From Escherichia phage vB_EcoM-pEK20: a DNA stretch of 64,000 nucleotides. Of this stretch, positions 1,315 through 20,836 are shown one piece after another. The notes under the pieces are model-generated. The model was not told the origin of the DNA. It did no database searches and saw only the letters and a program-made list of their open reading frames with translations. The first letter of the stretch is position 1. The number at the start of each line of letters is the position of its first letter. Location: sequence record MZ868638.1, one strand, 5' to 3'. The position numbers were made by a program, and so were the translations under genes.

Positions 1315-1617
1315 ATGAAAACATATCAAGAATTTATTACTGAAGCGCGAGTGAGTGCAGGTAAATTAGAAGCCGCTATAAATAAAAAGGCCCATTCATT
1401 TCATGATTTGTCCGATAAAGACCGTAAGAAACTTGTAAGCCTTTATATTGACAAAGAGCGTATTCTCGCTCTTCCTGGCGCTAATGAAGGTAAACAGGCC
1501 AAGCCTTTGAATGCCGTCGAAAAGAAAATTGATAACTTTGCTTCTAAATTCGGTATGTCTATGGATGACCTTCAGCAAGCGGCTATCGAAGCAGCTAAAG
1601 TAATTAAAGGTAAATAA
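1315..1617 (+). CDS. Internal protein (T4 IP family), CTS MKTYQEFITE
   Basis: 100 aa; N-terminus and body resemble T4 internal protein sequences as recalled. Confidence 0.55.
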   Translation: MKTYQEFITEARVSAGKLEAAINKKAHSFHDLSDKDRKKLVSLYIDKERILALPGANEGKQAKPLNAVEKKIDNFASKFGMSMDDLQQAAIEAAKVIKGK

Positions 1618-1619
1618 CA

Positions 1620-1649
1620 GTTTACTTTCTCCTAGAATTGTGATAGTAT
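1620..1649 (+). promoter_or_regulatory. T4-type early promoter
   Basis: GTTTAC 1620-1625, TAGTAT 1644-1649; precedes denV-like remnant. Confidence 0.4.
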
Positions 1650-1674
1650 ATTCATAATTACTTGGATGGGTAAA

Positions 1675-1804
1675 ATGACTTATATTAATTTGACTTTAGT
1701 ATCTAAATTTGCTGATCAACATTTAATCGCCGAATACTGTGAATTGCCACGTGTTTTTTGGTATAATTCGTAAACACGTGGCAAAAATATTTACATTCAA
1801 ATAA
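1675..1804 (+). pseudogene. denV-like 5' remnant (N-terminal ~43 codons, frameshifted)
   Basis: [28 protein letters not shown] matches DenV residues 1-28; a T7 run at 1754-1759 shifts frame, +1 frame continues FGIIRKHV (DenV FGAVRKHV) then stops at 1802-1804. Confidence 0.6.
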
Positions 1805-1946
1805 AATGGGAACAACCTGGACCTCATGATTCTATGAGGGATTCCCGCCAACCTGTAATAAGGTCGAGCCCAAGTGCGGTAATGGGTAAATACAGAAATG
1901 GACAATTCATGCGCCACGGAACGGCCCCAACCTTAAGAGAAACTAA

Positions 1947-2486
1947 ATGAGAACATTTTTAACCGGACCTTATCTATCCCTGATGAATGCTTTTACACAC
2001 CATTCTGATGCTAGAGTAGAAGAAATTTGTAAGAACGGTTATGCCCCACCATTTGAAGACGTACTCAAGCAGTACTGTACACTTCGTTTAGACGGTGGCA
2101 GACAATCCGGTAAATCAATTGCTGTGACTAATTTTGCTGCTAATTGGTTGTATGATGGCGGAACGGTTATTGTTCTTTCTAATACTTCAGCTTATGCTAA
2201 AATTTCTGCTGGCAACATTGAAAAAGAATTTTCTCGTTATTCTAGCGACGATATTCGATTCCGTTTATTTACTGATTCTGTTCGTAGTTTTATTGGTAAT
2301 GAAGGACATAAATTCCGTGGATTAACACTTTCTCGTATTCTGTACATAATTGACGAGCCTATTAAAGCTCCTGATATGGATAAGATTTACGACATCCATA
2401 TTAAAACAGTCCAACACTGTTGCAAAAGCAAATATTGCATCGGCGGTAATGCTCGTCCTCAATTTTTTGTGATTGGAATGCAATGA
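1947..2486 (+). CDS. Small P-loop NTPase (Walker A GGRQSGKS, Walker B ILYIIDEP)
   Basis: Motifs read from translation; family not assignable by eye. Confidence 0.4.
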   Translation: MRTFLTGPYLSLMNAFTHHSDARVEEICKNGYAPPFEDVLKQYCTLRLDGGRQSGKSIAVTNFAANWLYDGGTVIVLSNTSAYAKISAGNIEKEFSRYSSDDIRFRLFTDSVRSFIGNEGHKFRGLTLSRILYIIDEPIKAPDMDKIYDIHIKTVQHCCKSKYCIGGNARPQFFVIGMQ

Positions 2487-2791
2487 TGACCGCTATTGAA
2501 GTTTTTGAGTACTGTTATAACAGCCCAGTATGCAATAAAAGGGCCCTTGTAGAAAATTATGAGATTTACCATTTTAAACCTAAACGATACCGTTTGACTA
2601 AAGGTCCGTTCGCAGGGCAGCAGGTTCTTTGTACTGCTCCTAATGCACGGTTGATGACTAGTATTCCACATTTCAAAATGGAATTTATTGATGGGCCATT
2701 TAAAGGATTAATCACTCAAAGTTTAATGGCGTTTAATTCCGACCCATTTTTGATTAAAGAAAAAACTTGGATAAATTTATTTTCTAATTGA
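2483..2791 (+). CDS. Hypothetical protein, start overlaps stop of upstream NTPase (ATGA)
   Basis: ORF with overlapping start/stop suggesting translational coupling. Confidence 0.3.
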   Translation: MMTAIEVFEYCYNSPVCNKRALVENYEIYHFKPKRYRLTKGPFAGQQVLCTAPNARLMTSIPHFKMEFIDGPFKGLITQSLMAFNSDPFLIKEKTWINLFSN

Positions 2792-2797
2792 GGTTAT

Positions 2798-3160
2798 ATG
2801 AAAGCATATCAAATTCTTGAAGGTGAACATAAAGGCACTATTTATTTTGAAGACGGTACTCAAGCCCGGATTATTGTCTCTAAGACTTTTAAAGAAGACA
2901 CTATTGTAGACCCGGAAATTTTCTACGGTTTGAATGCTCGTGAAATTGAAATTGAACATCAACCTAAAGTTAAAATTGAAGGTGGTCAACACCTGAACGT
3001 TAACGTTCTGCGTCGCGAAACTCTGGAAGATGCAGTTAAGCATCCAGAAAAATATCCGCAGCTGACCATCCGTGTATCCGGTTATGCAGTTCGCTTTAAC
3101 TCTCTGACTCCGGAACAGCAGCGCGACGTTATCGCTCGTACCTTTACCGAGAGTCTATAA
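2798..3160 (+). CDS. Autonomous glycyl radical cofactor (GrcA/YfiD-like)
   Basis: C-terminal ~58 aa [59 protein letters not shown] matches E. coli GrcA as recalled, including the glycyl-radical motif RVSGY. Confidence 0.85.
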
Positions 3161-3384
3161 TGGCTAAATTGATTATAGAAGGGTCTGAAGATGTTTTAAA
3201 ATGTTTTGCCGCCTGGTTTAGTTGCCCAGGCGAGCAATCATTCATTGAAGCATTTAGAACGGGTGATATTACTGGAAACTATCCGACAACTGATATCACT
3301 GTACGTGGATATGGTATTAATGAGCCTATCCAATTGGTCGAATATGACCTTGCCACCGATGAGGAAATTCCTTATGTCGATTGA
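3160..3384 (+). CDS. Hypothetical protein
   Basis: ORF only. Confidence 0.3.
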   Translation: MAKLIIEGSEDVLKCFAAWFSCPGEQSFIEAFRTGDITGNYPTTDITVRGYGINEPIQLVEYDLATDEEIPYVD

Positions 3385-3619
3385 AGACATCAAAGGCTAC
3401 AAGCCGCATACCGATGATAAAATCGGTAAAGTGAACGCTATTAAAGATGCCGAAGTTCGTTTAGGACTTATTCTAGACGCCCTGGCAGAAGAAGCATTAT
3501 CAGCAAATACTCCTGAAGCTCTGACGGCTTTGTCCCAATTGAACTGTGCTAAAGAACGCCTAAAGGAAGCTAGTATGTGGGCTTGTCGTGCGGTATTTCA
3601 ACCAGAGGAAAAATACTAA
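3374..3619 (+). CDS. Hypothetical protein
   Basis: Internal ATG of ORF 3206-3619, overlaps upstream stop. Confidence 0.3.
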
Positions 3620-3918
3620 TGGCTCAAATCCTATCAGGCTTTGGAACTCATTATGAAGCATCTCGACGCATAACTGAAAGCAATCCTTTTGGCCTTGTTC
3701 CGAAGCACAAGAAAATTCAAAGCCTTGATGACTTTGAGAATCGCCTATGGGCCCTCTTTAATGAGTACAAGGCATATCTGAAAGAAGACGCTGACGATTG
3801 TCTTGAAGAAGATGAGATTGCGTATTACGAACAACGCCTTGAACAGCTCAAGAACTTCCACCAGGTTCGTGACGAAGTATCTAAAGCAGTTAAAAAGTTA
3901 ATTCCTTTCAAAGAGTAG
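3619..3918 (+). CDS. Hypothetical protein
   Basis: ATG 3619 overlapping upstream stop (TAATG). Confidence 0.3.
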
Positions 3919-3946
3919 TTTACTTCTCCTCTAGTTGTGTTACTAT
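3918..3946 (+). promoter_or_regulatory. T4-type early promoter with stem-loop (PeSL-like)
   Basis: GTTTAC 3918-3923, TACTAT 3941-3946; arm TTCTCCTCTAGTTG 3924-3937 pairs with CAACTAGAGGAGAA 3955-3968. Confidence 0.45.
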
Positions 3947-3974
3947 AGACCTGTCAACTAGAGGAGAAATCAAA

Positions 3975-4433
3975 ATGACTATCAATTCAGACGTTTTTAT
4001 CCGCCGCAATAAACTCCGTCGAATCTTTGAAACGGAGTTCCGCAAAATAAATGCCAGTATAAAAGATGCTGCAAAGTCTCTTGGACTACCGGGCTTTCAT
4101 ATCAAGTATTCTCAACATCTCTTAGATCGTGCCATCCAGAGAGAAATAGATGAGAATTACGTTTTTGAATTATTTCATAAAGTAAAAAATCATGTTAAAG
4201 AAGTTGCAGAATTTTTATCAATGCCGGCACGTCCAGATGTTGATGAAGATTTTGTCGAAGGTGTCGAATATCGCCCAGGCCGTTTAGAAATAACTGATGG
4301 AAATCTTTGGTTAGGACTTACAGTTTGTCGCGAAAATCCAGCATTCAAAATGAAGACTCTTCAATGCAGAATGGCTATTATTAACAATAAACGACTACCA
4401 GGAAAAGCTTCTAAAGCAGTGATTAAAATCTAG
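3975..4433 (+). CDS. regB: RegB-like sequence-specific endoribonuclease
   Basis: 152 aa; resembles T4 RegB as recalled and lies between denV and tk. Confidence 0.55.
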   Translation: MTINSDVFIRRNKLRRIFETEFRKINASIKDAAKSLGLPGFHIKYSQHLLDRAIQREIDENYVFELFHKVKNHVKEVAEFLSMPARPDVDEDFVEGVEYRPGRLEITDGNLWLGLTVCRENPAFKMKTLQCRMAIINNKRLPGKASKAVIKI

Positions 4434-4441
4434 AGGTAAAC

Positions 4442-4984
4442 ATGAGAAAAGCACTACTCGCTGGTCTATTTGCTCTTTCATTATCAGCACATAGCTCCGA
4501 GCATACTTTTAGTAATGTCCAACTCGATAACTTGAATTATGCTTATCAGTTTGGGGAACAGTTTTCTAAGGATGGAAAATTTAAAACGCATGAAAATATG
4601 CATAAGAAAGGACTTGGATACATAATGGCCGCAATACTATGGCAGGAATCATCTGCCGGTATTAATCTTAAAGATAAGAAAGGTCACCATGCGTATGGAA
4701 TGTTCCAAAATTATCTACCAACAATGAGGGCAAGAATTAACCAACTTGGTTATAATATGACTGATGCCCAAATTAAGAAAATGCTATCTAAGCGGTCTAA
4801 TTCAGCCAGATGGGCTTATATAGAATTTTCTTATTGGTTAAATATACATAACGGGGATATAAGGAAAGCCTTATCCTCATATAATGCGGGATGGAAGACA
4901 AGTGCTGGAAGTAAATATGCTTCTGAAGTCCTAGAAAAGGCTAATTACCTTAAATCAAATAAACTACTGGAAATAAAAGAATGA
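4442..4984 (+). CDS. Periplasmic lytic transglycosylase-like protein with signal peptide
   Basis: Signal peptide MRKALLAGLFALSLSA; Slt-type motifs E-S-S (WQESSAG), GMFQ and YNAGW. Confidence 0.5.
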   Translation: MRKALLAGLFALSLSAHSSEHTFSNVQLDNLNYAYQFGEQFSKDGKFKTHENMHKKGLGYIMAAILWQESSAGINLKDKKGHHAYGMFQNYLPTMRARINQLGYNMTDAQIKKMLSKRSNSARWAYIEFSYWLNIHNGDIRKALSSYNAGWKTSAGSKYASEVLEKANYLKSNKLLEIKE

Positions 4985-18081: not shown

Positions 18082-18555
18082 ATGTTATTATCAGGCGCAA
18101 AATATAAAGAAGAAAAACAAAAATTTTATGATGCACAGAACGGTAAGTGTCCTATTTGCCACCGTGAATTAGACCCTGATGTTCAAGGTAACCATCTTGA
18201 CCACGACCACGAATTAAACGGGCCAAAAGCCGGTAGAGTTCGTGGATTACTCTGTAATCTGTGCAACGCAGCAGAAGGTCAAATGAAGCATAAGTTCAAC
18301 CGTTCCGGTCTTAAAGGACGTGATGTCGACTACCTCGAATGGCTTGAAGCTCTTCTTGCTTATTTGAAACAAGATTATTCTGATAATAATATCCATCCTA
18401 ATTTTGTTCCAGACAAAACTAAAGAGTTCTCAAGACTAGGTAAAGAGGAAATGATGGCTGAGATGCTTCAAAGAGGATTTGAATATAATGAATCTGATAC
18501 CAAAACACAATTAATAGCTTCATTCAAAAAGCAGCTTAGAAAGAGTTTAAAATGA
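18082..18555 (+). CDS. 49: Endonuclease VII (Holliday junction resolvase)
   Basis: HLDHDHELNGPKAGRVRGLLCNLCN motif and length 157 aa match T4 gp49. Confidence 0.9.
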   Translation: MLLSGAKYKEEKQKFYDAQNGKCPICHRELDPDVQGNHLDHDHELNGPKAGRVRGLLCNLCNAAEGQMKHKFNRSGLKGRDVDYLEWLEALLAYLKQDYSDNNIHPNFVPDKTKEFSRLGKEEMMAEMLQRGFEYNESDTKTQLIASFKKQLRKSLK

Positions 18556-20369
18556 AAATTGAAAAAGAAATTGAAGGATTAATTCATAAAACTAATAAAG
18601 ATCTTTTGAACGAGAATGCTAATAAAGATTCTCGTGTTTTTCCAACTCAACGGGACCTTATGGCTGGTATTGTGTCTAAGCACATTGCCAAAAATATGGT
18701 CCCGTCTTTTATTATGAAAGCACATGAAAGCGGAATTGTCCATTTCCATGATATTGATTATTCCCCTGCTCTTCCATTTACTAATTGCTGTTTAGTAGAT
18801 TTAAAAGGAATGCTTGAAAACGGGTTTAAGCTAGGTAATGCTCAAATTGAAACGCCTAAATCGATTGGTGTTGCTACTGCAATTATGGCACAAATTACCG
18901 CACAGGTTGCTTCACATCAGTACGGCGGAACGACTTTTGCTAATGTAGATAAAGTACTTTCTCCTTATGTTAAACGCACCTATGCAAAACATATTGAGGA
19001 TGCAGAAAAATGGCAAATCGCTGATGCGTTGAATTATGCCCAATCTAAAACAGAAAAAGACGTATACGATGCATTTCAAGCTTATGAGTATGAAGTAAAT
19101 ACTCTTTTTAGCTCAAACGGTCAAACGCCTTTTGTAACAATTACATTTGGTACTGGAACTGACTGGACTGAACGAATTATTCAGAAAGCAATTCTTAAAA
19201 ACCGCATTAAAGGCCTTGGTCGTGATGGAATAACTCCTATTTTCCCTAAACTTGTTATGTTCATTGAAGAGGGTGTCAATCTTTATAAAGACGACCCGAA
19301 CTATGATATTAAGCAGCTTGCTCTAGAGTGTGCAAGCAAAAGAATGTATCCTGATATTATTTCAGCTAAGAACAATAAAGCTATCACTGGTTCATCTATT
19401 CCTGTTTCTCCAATGGGTTGTCGTAGTTTCTTGAGTGTATGGAAAGATTCGACTGGAAATGAAATTCTTGATGGACGTAATAATCTTGGTGTTGTAACAC
19501 TGAATCTTCCTCGTATTGCGTTAGATTCTTATATTGGAACACAATTCAATGAACAGAAATTTGTTGAGCTATTTAATGAACGAATGGATCTGTGTTTTGA
19601 AGCCTTGATGTGTAGAATTAGTTCTTTAAAGGGTGTTAAAGCAACAGTTGCTCCTATTCTTTACCAAGAAGGTGCATTTGGGGTTCGTCTTAAACCTGAT
19701 GATGATATAATTGAGCTATTTAAAAACGGTAGAAGTTCAGTGTCTTTAGGATACATTGGTATTCACGAATTGAATATTCTTGTCGGTCGTGATATTGGAC
19801 AGGAAATTTTGACTAAAATGAATGCTCGTCTTAAGCAGTGGACTGAAAGAACCGGTTTTGCTTTTAGCTTGTATTCTACTCCTGCTGAAAACCTGTGCTA
19901 TCGCTTCTGTAAACTTGATACTGAAAAATATGGAAGTGTAAAAGATGTTACTGATAAAGGCTGGTACACTAATAGTTTCCATGTTTCAGTAGAAGAAAAT
20001 ATCACTCCGTTTGAAAAGATTTCTCGCGAAGCCCCATATCATTTCATTGCGACTGGCGGACACATTTCTTATGTTGAACTTCCTGATATGAAAAATAACC
20101 TAAAAGGTCTTGAGGCTGTCTGGGATTATGCTGCGCAACATTTAGATTATTTTGGTGTTAATATGCCAGTAGATAAATGTTTTACGTGTGGAAGTACCCA
20201 TGAAATGACTCCTACCGAAAACGGATTTGTTTGTTCTATTTGTGGAGAAACTGATCCTAAAAAGATGAACACAATAAGAAGAACTTGTGGTTATCTTGGA
20301 AATCCTAACGAACGTGGATTTAATCTCGGCAAAAATAAAGAAATCATGCATAGGGTTAAACACCAATGA
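18552..20369 (+). CDS. nrdD: Anaerobic ribonucleoside-triphosphate reductase (glycyl radical enzyme)
   Basis: 605 aa, continuous ORF, C-terminal Zn/Cys motif and glycyl-radical region RRTCGY. Confidence 0.95.
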   Translation: MKIEKEIEGLIHKTNKDLLNENANKDSRVFPTQRDLMAGIVSKHIAKNMVPSFIMKAHESGIVHFHDIDYSPALPFTNCCLVDLKGMLENGFKLGNAQIETPKSIGVATAIMAQITAQVASHQYGGTTFANVDKVLSPYVKRTYAKHIEDAEKWQIADALNYAQSKTEKDVYDAFQAYEYEVNTLFSSNGQTPFVTITFGTGTDWTERIIQKAILKNRIKGLGRDGITPIFPKLVMFIEEGVNLYKDDPNYDIKQLALECASKRMYPDIISAKNNKAITGSSIPVSPMGCRSFLSVWKDSTGNEILDGRNNLGVVTLNLPRIALDSYIGTQFNEQKFVELFNERMDLCFEALMCRISSLKGVKATVAPILYQEGAFGVRLKPDDDIIELFKNGRSSVSLGYIGIHELNILVGRDIGQEILTKMNARLKQWTERTGFAFSLYSTPAENLCYRFCKLDTEKYGSVKDVTDKGWYTNSFHVSVEENITPFEKISREAPYHFIATGGHISYVELPDMKNNLKGLEAVWDYAAQHLDYFGVNMPVDKCFTCGSTHEMTPTENGFVCSICGETDPKKMNTIRRTCGYLGNPNERGFNLGKNKEIMHRVKHQ

Positions 20370-20836
20370 ATTATGATAGATTTTATCCTTGCGATTTTGT
20401 GAATGGCCCTGGTTGCAGGGTCGTTCTTTTCGTTACAGGTTGTTTGCATAAATGCGAAGGGTGTTATAATAAATCAACATGGAATGCTAGAAATGGTATT
20501 CCATTCACAGGTGAAACACTAGAGCAATTAATTGAATGTTTGAATAATGATTATATAGAAGGATTAACTATAACTGGAGGAGACCCTCTCTATCCCGATA
20601 ACAGAGATGTTGTTCATTGCATTGCTCAAACAGTAAAAAATCTTTATCCCAATAAAAGCATTTGGTTGTGGACAGGATATAAGTTTGAAGATATTAAACA
20701 ACTAGAAATGCTTAAATATGTTGATGTTATTATTGATGGGAAGTATGAGAAAAATCTTCCGACCAAAAAACTGTGGCGAGGATCAGATAATCAGCGACTT
20801 TGGTCAAATACCGATGGGGTGTGGAAACATGATTAA
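20366..20836 (+). CDS. nrdG: Anaerobic RNR activating enzyme (radical SAM)
   Basis: Cys motif CLHKCEGC; position after nrdD. Confidence 0.9.
   Translation: MNYDRFYPCDFVNGPGCRVVLFVTGCLHKCEGCYNKSTWNARNGIPFTGETLEQLIECLNNDYIEGLTITGGDPLYPDNRDVVHCIAQTVKNLYPNKSIWLWTGYKFEDIKQLEMLKYVDVIIDGKYEKNLPTKKLWRGSDNQRLWSNTDGVWKHD

Follow-up and report, generated by a model that had tools for sequence, protein, structure and literature searches.

Host-identical DNA in the glycyl-radical half of vs.6, a grcA-like gene of Escherichia phage vB_EcoM-pEK20, and its probable origin by recurrent conversion from the host

How can a virulent phage that destroys the DNA of its host nevertheless contain a short tract that matches alleles circulating in that host completely or almost completely? 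This question is raised by vs.6, a small gene of Escherichia phage vB_EcoM-pEK20 located at positions 2798..3160 on the plus strand of a 64,000-nucleotide (nt) stretch of its genome (MZ868638.1), hereafter called the window. The product of vs.6 belongs to the GrcA (YfiD) family of autonomous glycyl radical cofactors. Among related phages, the tract switches from one allele to another even when the adjacent DNA is identical, and it follows the host genus, Escherichia coli or Klebsiella. The explanation that we consider highly probable is that vs.6 is an old phage ortholog of grcA acting as a spare part for pyruvate formate-lyase (PFL), the glycyl-radical half of which has been recurrently overwritten by host-to-phage gene conversion.

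The host-identical tract

Between positions 2978 and 3147, vs.6 differs from K-12-type grcA at a single one of 170 nt (3046, A instead of G), which corresponds to an identity of 99.4%. The host-identical run as a whole spans 2976/2978..3147, and 56 of the 57 codons concerned (61-117) are the same as in E. coli grcA. Immediately 5' of the junction, the 48 nt from 2930 to 2977 are only 54% identical to the K-12-type gene, and ungapped 30-base blocks of the 5' half of vs.6 reach 23-53% with E. coli grcA. The contrast between 22 mismatches in the 48 upstream positions and one in 171 positions of the tract is highly significant (Fisher p = 6e-16). At the other end, each of the last four sense codons (3146..3157) shows one synonymous difference from grcA, and the homology to the host stops at the vs.6 stop codon. 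The initial annotation of this DNA, made from the sequence alone, had placed a host-like 3' half at 2980-3160, which is correct to within a few bases. The features of the gene are the following.

2790..2793, plus strand: Shine-Dalgarno-like GAGG, 4 nt upstream of the vs.6 ATG (direct sequence reading)
2798..3160, plus strand, stop codon included: vs.6 (Y06I) ortholog, predicted 120-residue autonomous glycyl radical cofactor of the GrcA/YfiD family (open reading frame, family match and synteny)
2798..2977, plus strand: phage-type 5' half of vs.6, codons 1-60 (composition and low identity to grcA)
2978..3147, plus strand: host-derived tract, codons 61-117, E. coli grcA DNA for the structured glycyl-radical domain (identity)
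3080..3082, plus strand: GGT codon of Gly95, the glycine in RVSGYAV, predicted to bear the radical (identity to GrcA and alignment to PFL)
3148..3160, plus strand: phage-type 3' end of vs.6 (four synonymous differences from grcA)

The base composition of the gene is equally divided. Codons 1-60 have a GC content of 0.33 and a GC content at third codon positions (GC3) of 0.22, compared with 0.50 and 0.43 for codons 61-120; the GC3 of the tract itself is 0.43-0.44. The long open reading frames (ORFs) of the window have a mean GC3 of 0.30, and just 3.8% of their 57-codon windows reach the value of the tract. The codons used in the tract are typical of the host (CTG, CGT/CGC and CCG). All five of its leucine codons are CTG, a codon that accounts for 10% of the leucine codons in the long ORFs of the window. 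The GC-richer 3' half with CTG, CGT and CCG codons that had been noticed initially is thus borne out by the rise in GC3 from 0.22 to 0.43 and by the leucine codons.

The identity of the tract to grcA also exceeds what the encoded protein would impose. When the 57 residues of the tract were re-coded with the codon usage of the 64-kb window, the identity to grcA was 78.8 +/- 2.2% and no trial out of 20,000 exceeded 88.3%, against an observed 169/171 (98.8%) over 2978..3148. Measured against the grcA gene of each of 5,426 complete E. coli genomes, the identity of the tract is 98.2-99.4%, and the tract therefore lies near the allelic range of E. coli itself. The exact tract occurs in none of these genomes; 3046A, which is also present in phages ATK47 and JK45, is absent from all of them. 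A megablast search with the whole window against the same 5,426 genomes returned 2976..3168 as the sole match and no other host-like DNA. Recent recombination with host grcA, as proposed in the initial annotation, agrees well with this raised nucleotide identity of the 3' half and with the sharp breakpoint.

A GC-rich, host-identical patch in an AT-rich phage gene could look like contamination, that is, like host reads mis-assembled into a phage contig. This can be dismissed. The reading frame is unbroken across both junctions, the same junction is found in about 640 independently sequenced phage records, the T4 sequences X04567 and AF158101 among them, and the tract has in 3046A a phage-specific variant of its own.

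The tract might alternatively go back to one ancient acquisition of the whole gene without any later recombination, after which the N-terminal half drifted and purifying selection froze the C-terminal domain. This domain is indeed nearly invariant as a protein across bacteria and phages, and the 5' half of vs.6 is still recognisably GrcA-like. However, selection at the protein level leaves synonymous sites free, and yet almost every codon of the tract matches E. coli. In RB16-like phages, the same 60 residues are encoded with a nucleotide identity of only 82-84%, the grcA genes of E. coli and Salmonella differ from each other by 17.5% in the tract, and the codon-usage simulation stays far below the observed value. 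Since the junction is also abrupt and the GC3 step runs opposite to the composition of the phage, a scenario based on drift and selection is very improbable. An RNA element or regulatory signal as the cause of the synonymous conservation was likewise rejected, as no Rfam match at E <= 0.1 was found within 1500..4500. An antisense ORF of 88 residues (2777..3043) is without support.

Donor, native state and age of the tract

Identity alone gives no direction, and E. coli and Klebsiella might have taken the 3' part of their grcA from phages. In bacteria, however, the 5' half and the tract of grcA diverge in parallel across seven taxa. Between E. coli and Citrobacter, the 5' half is 88.6% and the tract 91.8% identical; the corresponding values are 84.6% and 82.5% for Salmonella, and 84.6% and 88.3% for a Klebsiella-type allele. 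Both parts follow the species relationships, from Escherichia sp. through Citrobacter, Salmonella and the Klebsiella type to Yersinia. The bacterial gene is furthermore located in a conserved ung-grcA-eamB synteny. The parallel divergence of its two halves implies that the host is the donor, and together with the synteny it indicates that the tract belongs natively to the host and is foreign DNA in the phage. The phage tract is far closer to E. coli grcA than the tracts of Salmonella (82.5%) or Citrobacter (91.8%) are. Its GC3 and codons, typical of the host, make it an outlier in the phage. A transfer in the reverse direction is therefore hardly credible. The gene of PFL itself, pflB, was rejected as a donor, as it is 79% identical to the tract, compared with 98-99% for grcA.

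The 5' half of vs.6 is an old, diverged version of the GrcA N-terminal region rather than foreign DNA. It is conserved among T4-like phages, differs from its T4 counterpart at 21/180 nt, and can be aligned to GrcA from residue 18-21 onwards. The term "chimeric", used in the initial annotation, is thus appropriate with regard to the host-derived 3' part, but not in the sense of a fusion of unrelated parts. Native-type orthologs of vs.6 in some other T4-like phages (loci L009-L012) have an AT-rich 3' half with a GC3 of 0.22-0.30. Their tracts are 77-80% identical to the best-matching bacterial grcA and share near-exact runs of 29-38 nt with it. In most of the Tequatrovirus and Mosigvirus sampled, the longest near-exact runs extend over 116-178 nt (92 and 106 nt in two of them), as against at most 38 nt in the native type. 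We take the AT-rich 3' half of L009-L012 to be the native state of vs.6. Combined with the GrcA-like 5' half, it therefore suggests an old phage gene that has been partly overwritten by host DNA.

Older host-specific conversions were sought in RB16/RB43-like, KP15-like and other phages. Their identities of 77-86% to the best bacterial allele allow no call because they are close to the codon-usage null (maximum 88%). Several metagenomic sequences deserve mention here. The 19-kb IMG/VR contig L032 has a tract that is 91% identical to a Yersinia grcA and 81% identical to that of E. coli, which is no more than suggestive. The metagenomic viral contigs L021-L026 and L040/L043 also carry GrcA-like genes, the one of L022 being 86% identical to Haemophilus parainfluenzae grcA. 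Together with L032, they lean towards particular host groups, with values near or slightly above the codon-usage null in a sample of bacteria from which the appropriate donor species were absent. GrcA-like spare-part genes occur as well in T5-like phages (L045-L071, 104-122 kb) and in jumbo Klebsiella phages (L027/L028/L030, 345-357 kb), where some are annotated as "pyruvate formate-lyase" or "acetyltransferase"; a host-identical tract was found in none of them (73-78% identity). On the bacterial side, a full-length enterobacterial-type grcA is located on a 275-kb plasmid of Klebsiella sp. WOUb02 (L105, NZ_CP170105.1). Another one is carried by a contig labelled as the Firmicute Vagococcus sp. 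WN89Y (L113) and seems to come from an assembly that was mislabelled or contaminated.

A tract at least 95% identical to that of the window is present in about 640 phage records, including T4. Most of them bear names as phages of Escherichia, Shigella or Enterobacteria, and for some the isolation host was Yersinia, Salmonella or Citrobacter. The left junction is the same in all E. coli T-even phages examined, and the right junction is nearly so. Twelve phages out of the 640 records, all belonging to Tequatrovirus or Mosigvirus, were aligned. The p-distance between the window and the T4-group phages is 0.33 in vs.7, 0.12 in the 5' half of vs.6, 0.012-0.053 in the tract and 0.28 in vs.5. Where the encoded amino acid is the same, 12/53 codons of the 5' half but only 2/56 of the tract differ (p = 0.0035). 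The block of low divergence starts where the homology to the host starts, with seven differences in the 60 nt before the junction and two in the 60 nt after it. Judged by these distances, the tract is younger than the flanking phage DNA. The T4 reference (L163, AF158101) has a nonsynonymous change within the host-derived tract at codon 73 of vs.6 (corresponding to window 3014..3016), which turns LRRETL into LRHETL and is absent from the other 11 T-even sequences and from every bacterial allele examined.

Probable conversion in Klebsiella and E. coli phages

Whether the tract was acquired once or repeatedly can be approached through the phages of a second host genus. In Jiaodavirus, vs.6 has the same left junction and a GC-rich tract, which encodes the Klebsiella-type GrcA signature ETLLDAVEH instead of ETLEDAVKH. 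The bacterial genome contigs at hand were the 80 best protein matches, outside of which lie E. coli, K. pneumoniae and most Yersinia. Alleles of the Klebsiella-type donor were therefore obtained by a pattern scan of metagenomes, which yielded 43 bacterial contigs and one Jiaodavirus-like phage contig of 165.7 kb, L177. The bacterial contigs, up to 1 Mb in size, have the canonical N-terminal half of GrcA, and L214, the one checked, is syntenic with the E. coli grcA locus. The tract of L177 is identical at 158/158 nt to the commonest bacterial allele (that of L214, found in 21 contigs), with about 40% identity just upstream of it and a rise in GC3 from 0.23 to 0.63. The Klebsiella-type tract is matched at 95% identity or more by about 114 phage records, of which the listed ones are without exception Klebsiella phages. 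In E. coli phages, the identity to it amounts to 87-89%, a range that includes the 88.3% between the grcA genes of the two hosts.

The Klebsiella phages do not all carry the same allele. Phage KPV15 (L029) matches the L214 allele at 157/158 nt, and pzk-kv4 (L165), the host of which is K. variicola, matches another allele, L213, at 155/158 nt and has five of the seven bases that tell L213 from L214. Roth78 (L217) and a Raoultella phage (L216) show L211-type states at three sites, and 311F (L219) has a further mosaic tract. L177, L217 and L218 have no differences in the 180 nt of their 5' halves, yet they differ at two to three sites of the tract, nearly always at positions and with bases that distinguish bacterial alleles. 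Such allele-site differences next to identical 5' halves are the hallmark of short-patch conversion that has occurred repeatedly and from different donors. In KPV15 (KY000080), the vs.6 frame is broken in the 5' half, with a match of 359 instead of 360 nt and an open frame of 80 residues. Its host-like tract is intact, and the break reflects either an error in sequencing or a gene that has recently become a pseudogene.

The E. coli phages, in which variation in the tract also resembles that of the host, give a weaker hint in the same direction. The four sites that are polymorphic among the sampled Escherichia alleles (2989, 3001, 3016 and 3079) are all polymorphic in the phages, with the same bases. 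At the right end, the states at 3148, 3151, 3154, 3155 and 3157 form patchwork combinations of host-like and phage-like bases among the phages.

The comparison of the phages shows that the 3' segment of about 170 nt, which encodes the structured radical domain, has been replaced by E. coli grcA DNA in Tequatrovirus and Mosigvirus infecting E. coli, and that it carries Klebsiella-type alleles in Jiaodavirus infecting Klebsiella. The exchange appears to be recurrent and to be a short-patch host-to-phage gene conversion, with its left border at EGGQ and its right border near the stop codon. Both borders would be set by the limits of homology between phage and host, which begins at EGGQ and ends at the stop codon and the start of the downstream gene. 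Constraint on the protein would keep the two DNAs similar enough for homeologous recombination, and a host tract, once installed, would serve as a perfect substrate for further conversion.

A rival view is that one T-even ancestor captured the tract recently in each host genus and that it then spread from phage to phage without ongoing conversion. T-even phages recombine readily with each other. The E. coli T-even phages examined share the left and nearly the right junction, and only about four informative sites tie their variants to host alleles. On the other hand, the low divergence between phages begins at the border of host homology, to which an exchange among phages should be indifferent. 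Among Jiaodaviruses whose 5' halves are identical, L214-, L213- and L211-type tracts occur that differ where those alleles differ, and the right-end states vary as a patchwork between phages. A single capture per genus is therefore unlikely, although it deserves more credit than the other alternatives considered here.

Several points nevertheless weigh against recurrent conversion or against the reading of the gene as a whole. If the E. coli phages are taken by themselves, much of the pattern could result from one capture and later phage-phage recombination, since all of them share one left junction and the four host-shared polymorphisms are few and possibly mutational hotspots. T-even phages degrade host DNA early in infection, so that a frequent exchange from host to phage is mechanistically non-obvious. 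The Klebsiella donor contigs are metagenomic and carry no species label; they are recognised by the type of their GrcA N-terminal half, their size and the ung-grcA-eamB synteny. With regard to the protein, the family model TIGR04365 (NCBIfam GrcA; IPR011140) aligns to residues 18-120 of the vs.6 product with 158.4 bits, below the cutoff of 170 bits for the bacterial GrcA equivalog. This shortfall is explained by the diverged and shorter N-terminal half, and it therefore places vs.6 in a phage ortholog group rather than among the bacterial equivalogs. Its presumed function, finally, rests on orthology to T4 Y06I.

Taken together, the sequences give recurrent host-tracking conversion good support in the phages of Klebsiella and make it plausible in those of E. 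coli. A further step is to regard vs.6 in strictly lytic T-even-type phages as a permanent hotspot of conversion by host DNA, at which about 160-170 nt are repeatedly refreshed from the grcA of the current host; towards this view the evidence tilts only slightly. If it is true, the phage would always hold an exact copy of the spare part of its local host, and the match in allele might either be selected for compatibility with the PFL and activase of the host or arise neutrally as a consequence of homology. It would also be possible to read the recent hosts of a phage lineage from the tract; Tequatroviruses with Yersinia, Salmonella or Citrobacter as isolation host still carry E. coli alleles. 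If recurrent conversion is confirmed, vs.6 would offer a natural reporter, readable from sequence, of how often and over what tract length T-even phages recombine with host DNA, a possible marker of host history for about 750 sequenced phages, and a test of whether spare-part proteins must match the PFL and activase of the host.

Function, neighbourhood and known systems

The protein encoded by vs.6 contains the Pfam domain Gly_radical (PF01228; E = 2e-18), and its top match among solved structures is E. coli GrcA (PDB 6OWR; residues 21-120, E = 2e-42). The same PDB search, with 33 matches headed by GrcA and PFL, aligns residues 57-120 to PFL 696-759. The last 60 residues (61-120, EGGQHLNV...TFTESL) are identical to residues 68-127 of E. 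coli GrcA, so that the match of the C-terminal 58 or so codons noticed in the initial annotation extends slightly further. Gly95 corresponds to G102 of GrcA and to G734 of PFL, the site of the radical and of cleavage (PMC8683613). In YfiD, residues 61-127 share the fold of PFL 693-759 and bear the radical, and the disordered residues 1-60 aid binding to cleaved PFL (cPFL) and installation of the radical (PMC8683613). According to the account of Wagner et al. 2001 given in PMC8683613, T4 Y06I and YfiD are the only two spare parts with biochemical validation; once activated by the PFL activase, they restore PFL that oxygen has cleaved.

We infer that this Y06I is vs.6, because T4 has one GrcA-like gene, at a single place in AF158101, and its product has 120 residues. 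The pEK20 gene is the Mosigvirus ortholog of T4 vs.6/Y06I, predicted to encode a stand-alone glycyl-radical spare part. Radical installation and PFL repair are known from T4 Y06I and YfiD, and are assigned to pEK20 vs.6 by orthology and sequence identity. The host PFL activase (PflA) would put the radical on Gly95, the C-terminal domain would stand in for the PFL C-terminus cut off by oxygen at G734, and the N-terminal half would aid docking. PFL activity would thereby return in infected cells under microaerobic conditions and sustain the supply of acetyl-CoA, ATP and formate. Most of the class III ribonucleotide reductases that have been characterised use formate as their reductant, and the NrdD1 subtype includes both T4 NrdD and E. 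coli NrdD (PMC4493059). This suggests a functional link in which vs.6, by keeping PFL active, would provide formate as a reductant for the phage NrdD during anaerobic infection. The genes of this anaerobic ribonucleotide reductase lie further downstream in the window.

18552..20369, plus strand: nrdD, phage anaerobic ribonucleotide reductase (ORF)
20366..20836, plus strand: nrdG, activase of the phage anaerobic ribonucleotide reductase (ORF)

NrdD could itself be the client for which vs.6 provides a spare radical domain. It is encoded together with NrdG in the same window as vs.6, is likewise a glycyl radical enzyme and is inactivated by oxygen cleavage. A role of vs.6 in nucleotide metabolism has been speculated on the basis of its Pfam match (Nolan et al. 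2006, PMC1524935). However, the vs.6 protein has no significant similarity to the NrdD of the window (BLASTP E = 2.8), and no NrdD chain occurs among its 33 PDB matches. The radical site of NrdD (RRTCGYLG) lies behind a Cys-rich segment (CxxC...CxxC), and both this motif and the CxxC pairs are absent from vs.6. The vs.6 domain stays identical to the PFL spare part of the host and not to anything encoded by the phage, and T4 Y06I, as far as the work of Wagner et al. 2001 is reported in PMC8683613, acts on PFL with the PFL activase. NrdD is therefore an improbable client. The initial annotation had named both enzymes; rescue of host PFL is supported by the literature on the orthologs, whereas nrdD/nrdG, which consume formate, are not supported as a direct client.

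The gene vs.6 is a stand-alone ORF with its own start and Shine-Dalgarno sequence and with unrelated small phage genes on both sides. Comparison with annotated relatives shows the small genes running head-to-tail in the order vs.8, vs.7, vs.6, vs.5, vs.4, regB, vs.1 and vs, so that vs.6 is positioned between vs.7 and vs.5 and upstream of regB, as in the annotations of T4, vB_Eco_F27, ATK47 and JK45. The GAGG motif (2790..2793) overlaps the stop codon of vs.7 (TGA, 2789..2791), and the stop codon of vs.6 overlaps the start codon of vs.5 (TAATG; vs.5 ATG at 3160). Promoter-like and terminator-like sites around vs.6 occur at background frequency only and give no separate signal, for which reason vs.6 is regarded as part of the tightly packed vs operon. 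The closest phage matches are the Mosigvirus phages PTK (99.4%) and vB_Eco_F27 (97.8%). Records of Tequatrovirus and Mosigvirus, in which the coding sequence is named vs.6 or "autonomous glycyl radical cofactor", match at 91-99% of nt, and at least 80% of the gene is covered in 915 phage records. In the comparison by Nolan et al. (PMC1524935), it is among the few T4 ORFs of unknown function that are retained in each of the five other T4-like genomes.

At the end of vs.6 (window 3149..3162), just 5' of the vs.5 start, the phage-specific GAG AGT CTA replaces GAA AGC CTG of the host. The resulting GAGAG may be part of the vs.5 ribosome-binding site, a weak idea given that T4 itself has GAA. Further upstream, window 1666..1950 looks like a decayed denV, the gene for T4 endonuclease V. 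In a tblastn search, residues 1-28 of T4 DenV match 1675..1758 (82% identity) and residues 28-36 match in the next frame. The rest is unrecognisable as DenV, and only ORFs of 35 and 38 residues remain; vB_Eco_F27 has a "hypothetical protein" of 132 residues at this position. Directly 5' of nrdD, with an overlap of 4 nt, an ORF of 157 residues (18082..18555) contains the motifs CxxC...HLDHDH...CNLCN. It is a putative endonuclease VII (T4 gp49), which would give the T4 order 49-nrdD-nrdG.

Neither the gene nor its function is new, since vs.6 is annotated under this name or as "autonomous glycyl radical cofactor" in many records and its T4 ortholog has been characterised biochemically. T4 Vs.6 (Y06I, AAD42676) has the same length as the pEK20 protein and is identical to it at 112/120 residues. 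The two phages share the order vs.8-vs.7-vs.6-vs.5, the host-identical 3' tract and its left junction. They differ by seven substitutions in the N-terminal half, by R73H of T4 in the tract and in the synonymous states at the right end, and their flanking genes are about 30% diverged. E. coli GrcA/YfiD (WP_000627807; PDB 6OWR) has the same C-terminal 60 residues, encoded by DNA that is 99.4% identical over 170 nt, and like vs.6 it combines a disordered N-terminal half with a structured radical domain. Unlike GrcA, vs.6 has an N-terminal half that is seven residues shorter and only weakly similar, and it is located in a lytic phage operon and not next to ung. The C-terminal domain of PflB (approximately 693-759; PDB 1H16, 2PFL) is the same domain with the same RVSGYAV radical loop, but it is carried inside an 85-kDa enzyme, and the pflB DNA is only 79% identical to the tract. 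The native orthologs of vs.6 in other T4-like, T5-like and jumbo Klebsiella phages encode the same two-part protein with a shared core; the T5-like loci are 73-76% identical to the best-matching bacterial grcA and have no host-identical tract.

A description of a host-identical DNA tract or of host-allele tracking in vs.6 was not found in the searchable open literature, the coverage of which is incomplete, and an earlier remark on the tract may exist because T4 has been studied for decades. Recurrent host-tracking conversion at this gene is thus apparently undescribed. The nearest parallel is psbA of the cyanophages, in which intragenic recombination between host and phage was reportedly described by Zeidner and co-workers in 2005 and by Sullivan and co-workers in 2006. 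It is an auxiliary metabolic gene of T4-like lytic phages, and its patchy host-like composition has been attributed to the exchange of segments with host alleles. The case of vs.6 concerns another gene and another host group, and it differs from psbA in its short tract of about 160-170 nt with borders fixed by the limits of homology, in an identity of up to 100% to a circulating host allele, and in its replication in two enterobacterial host genera.

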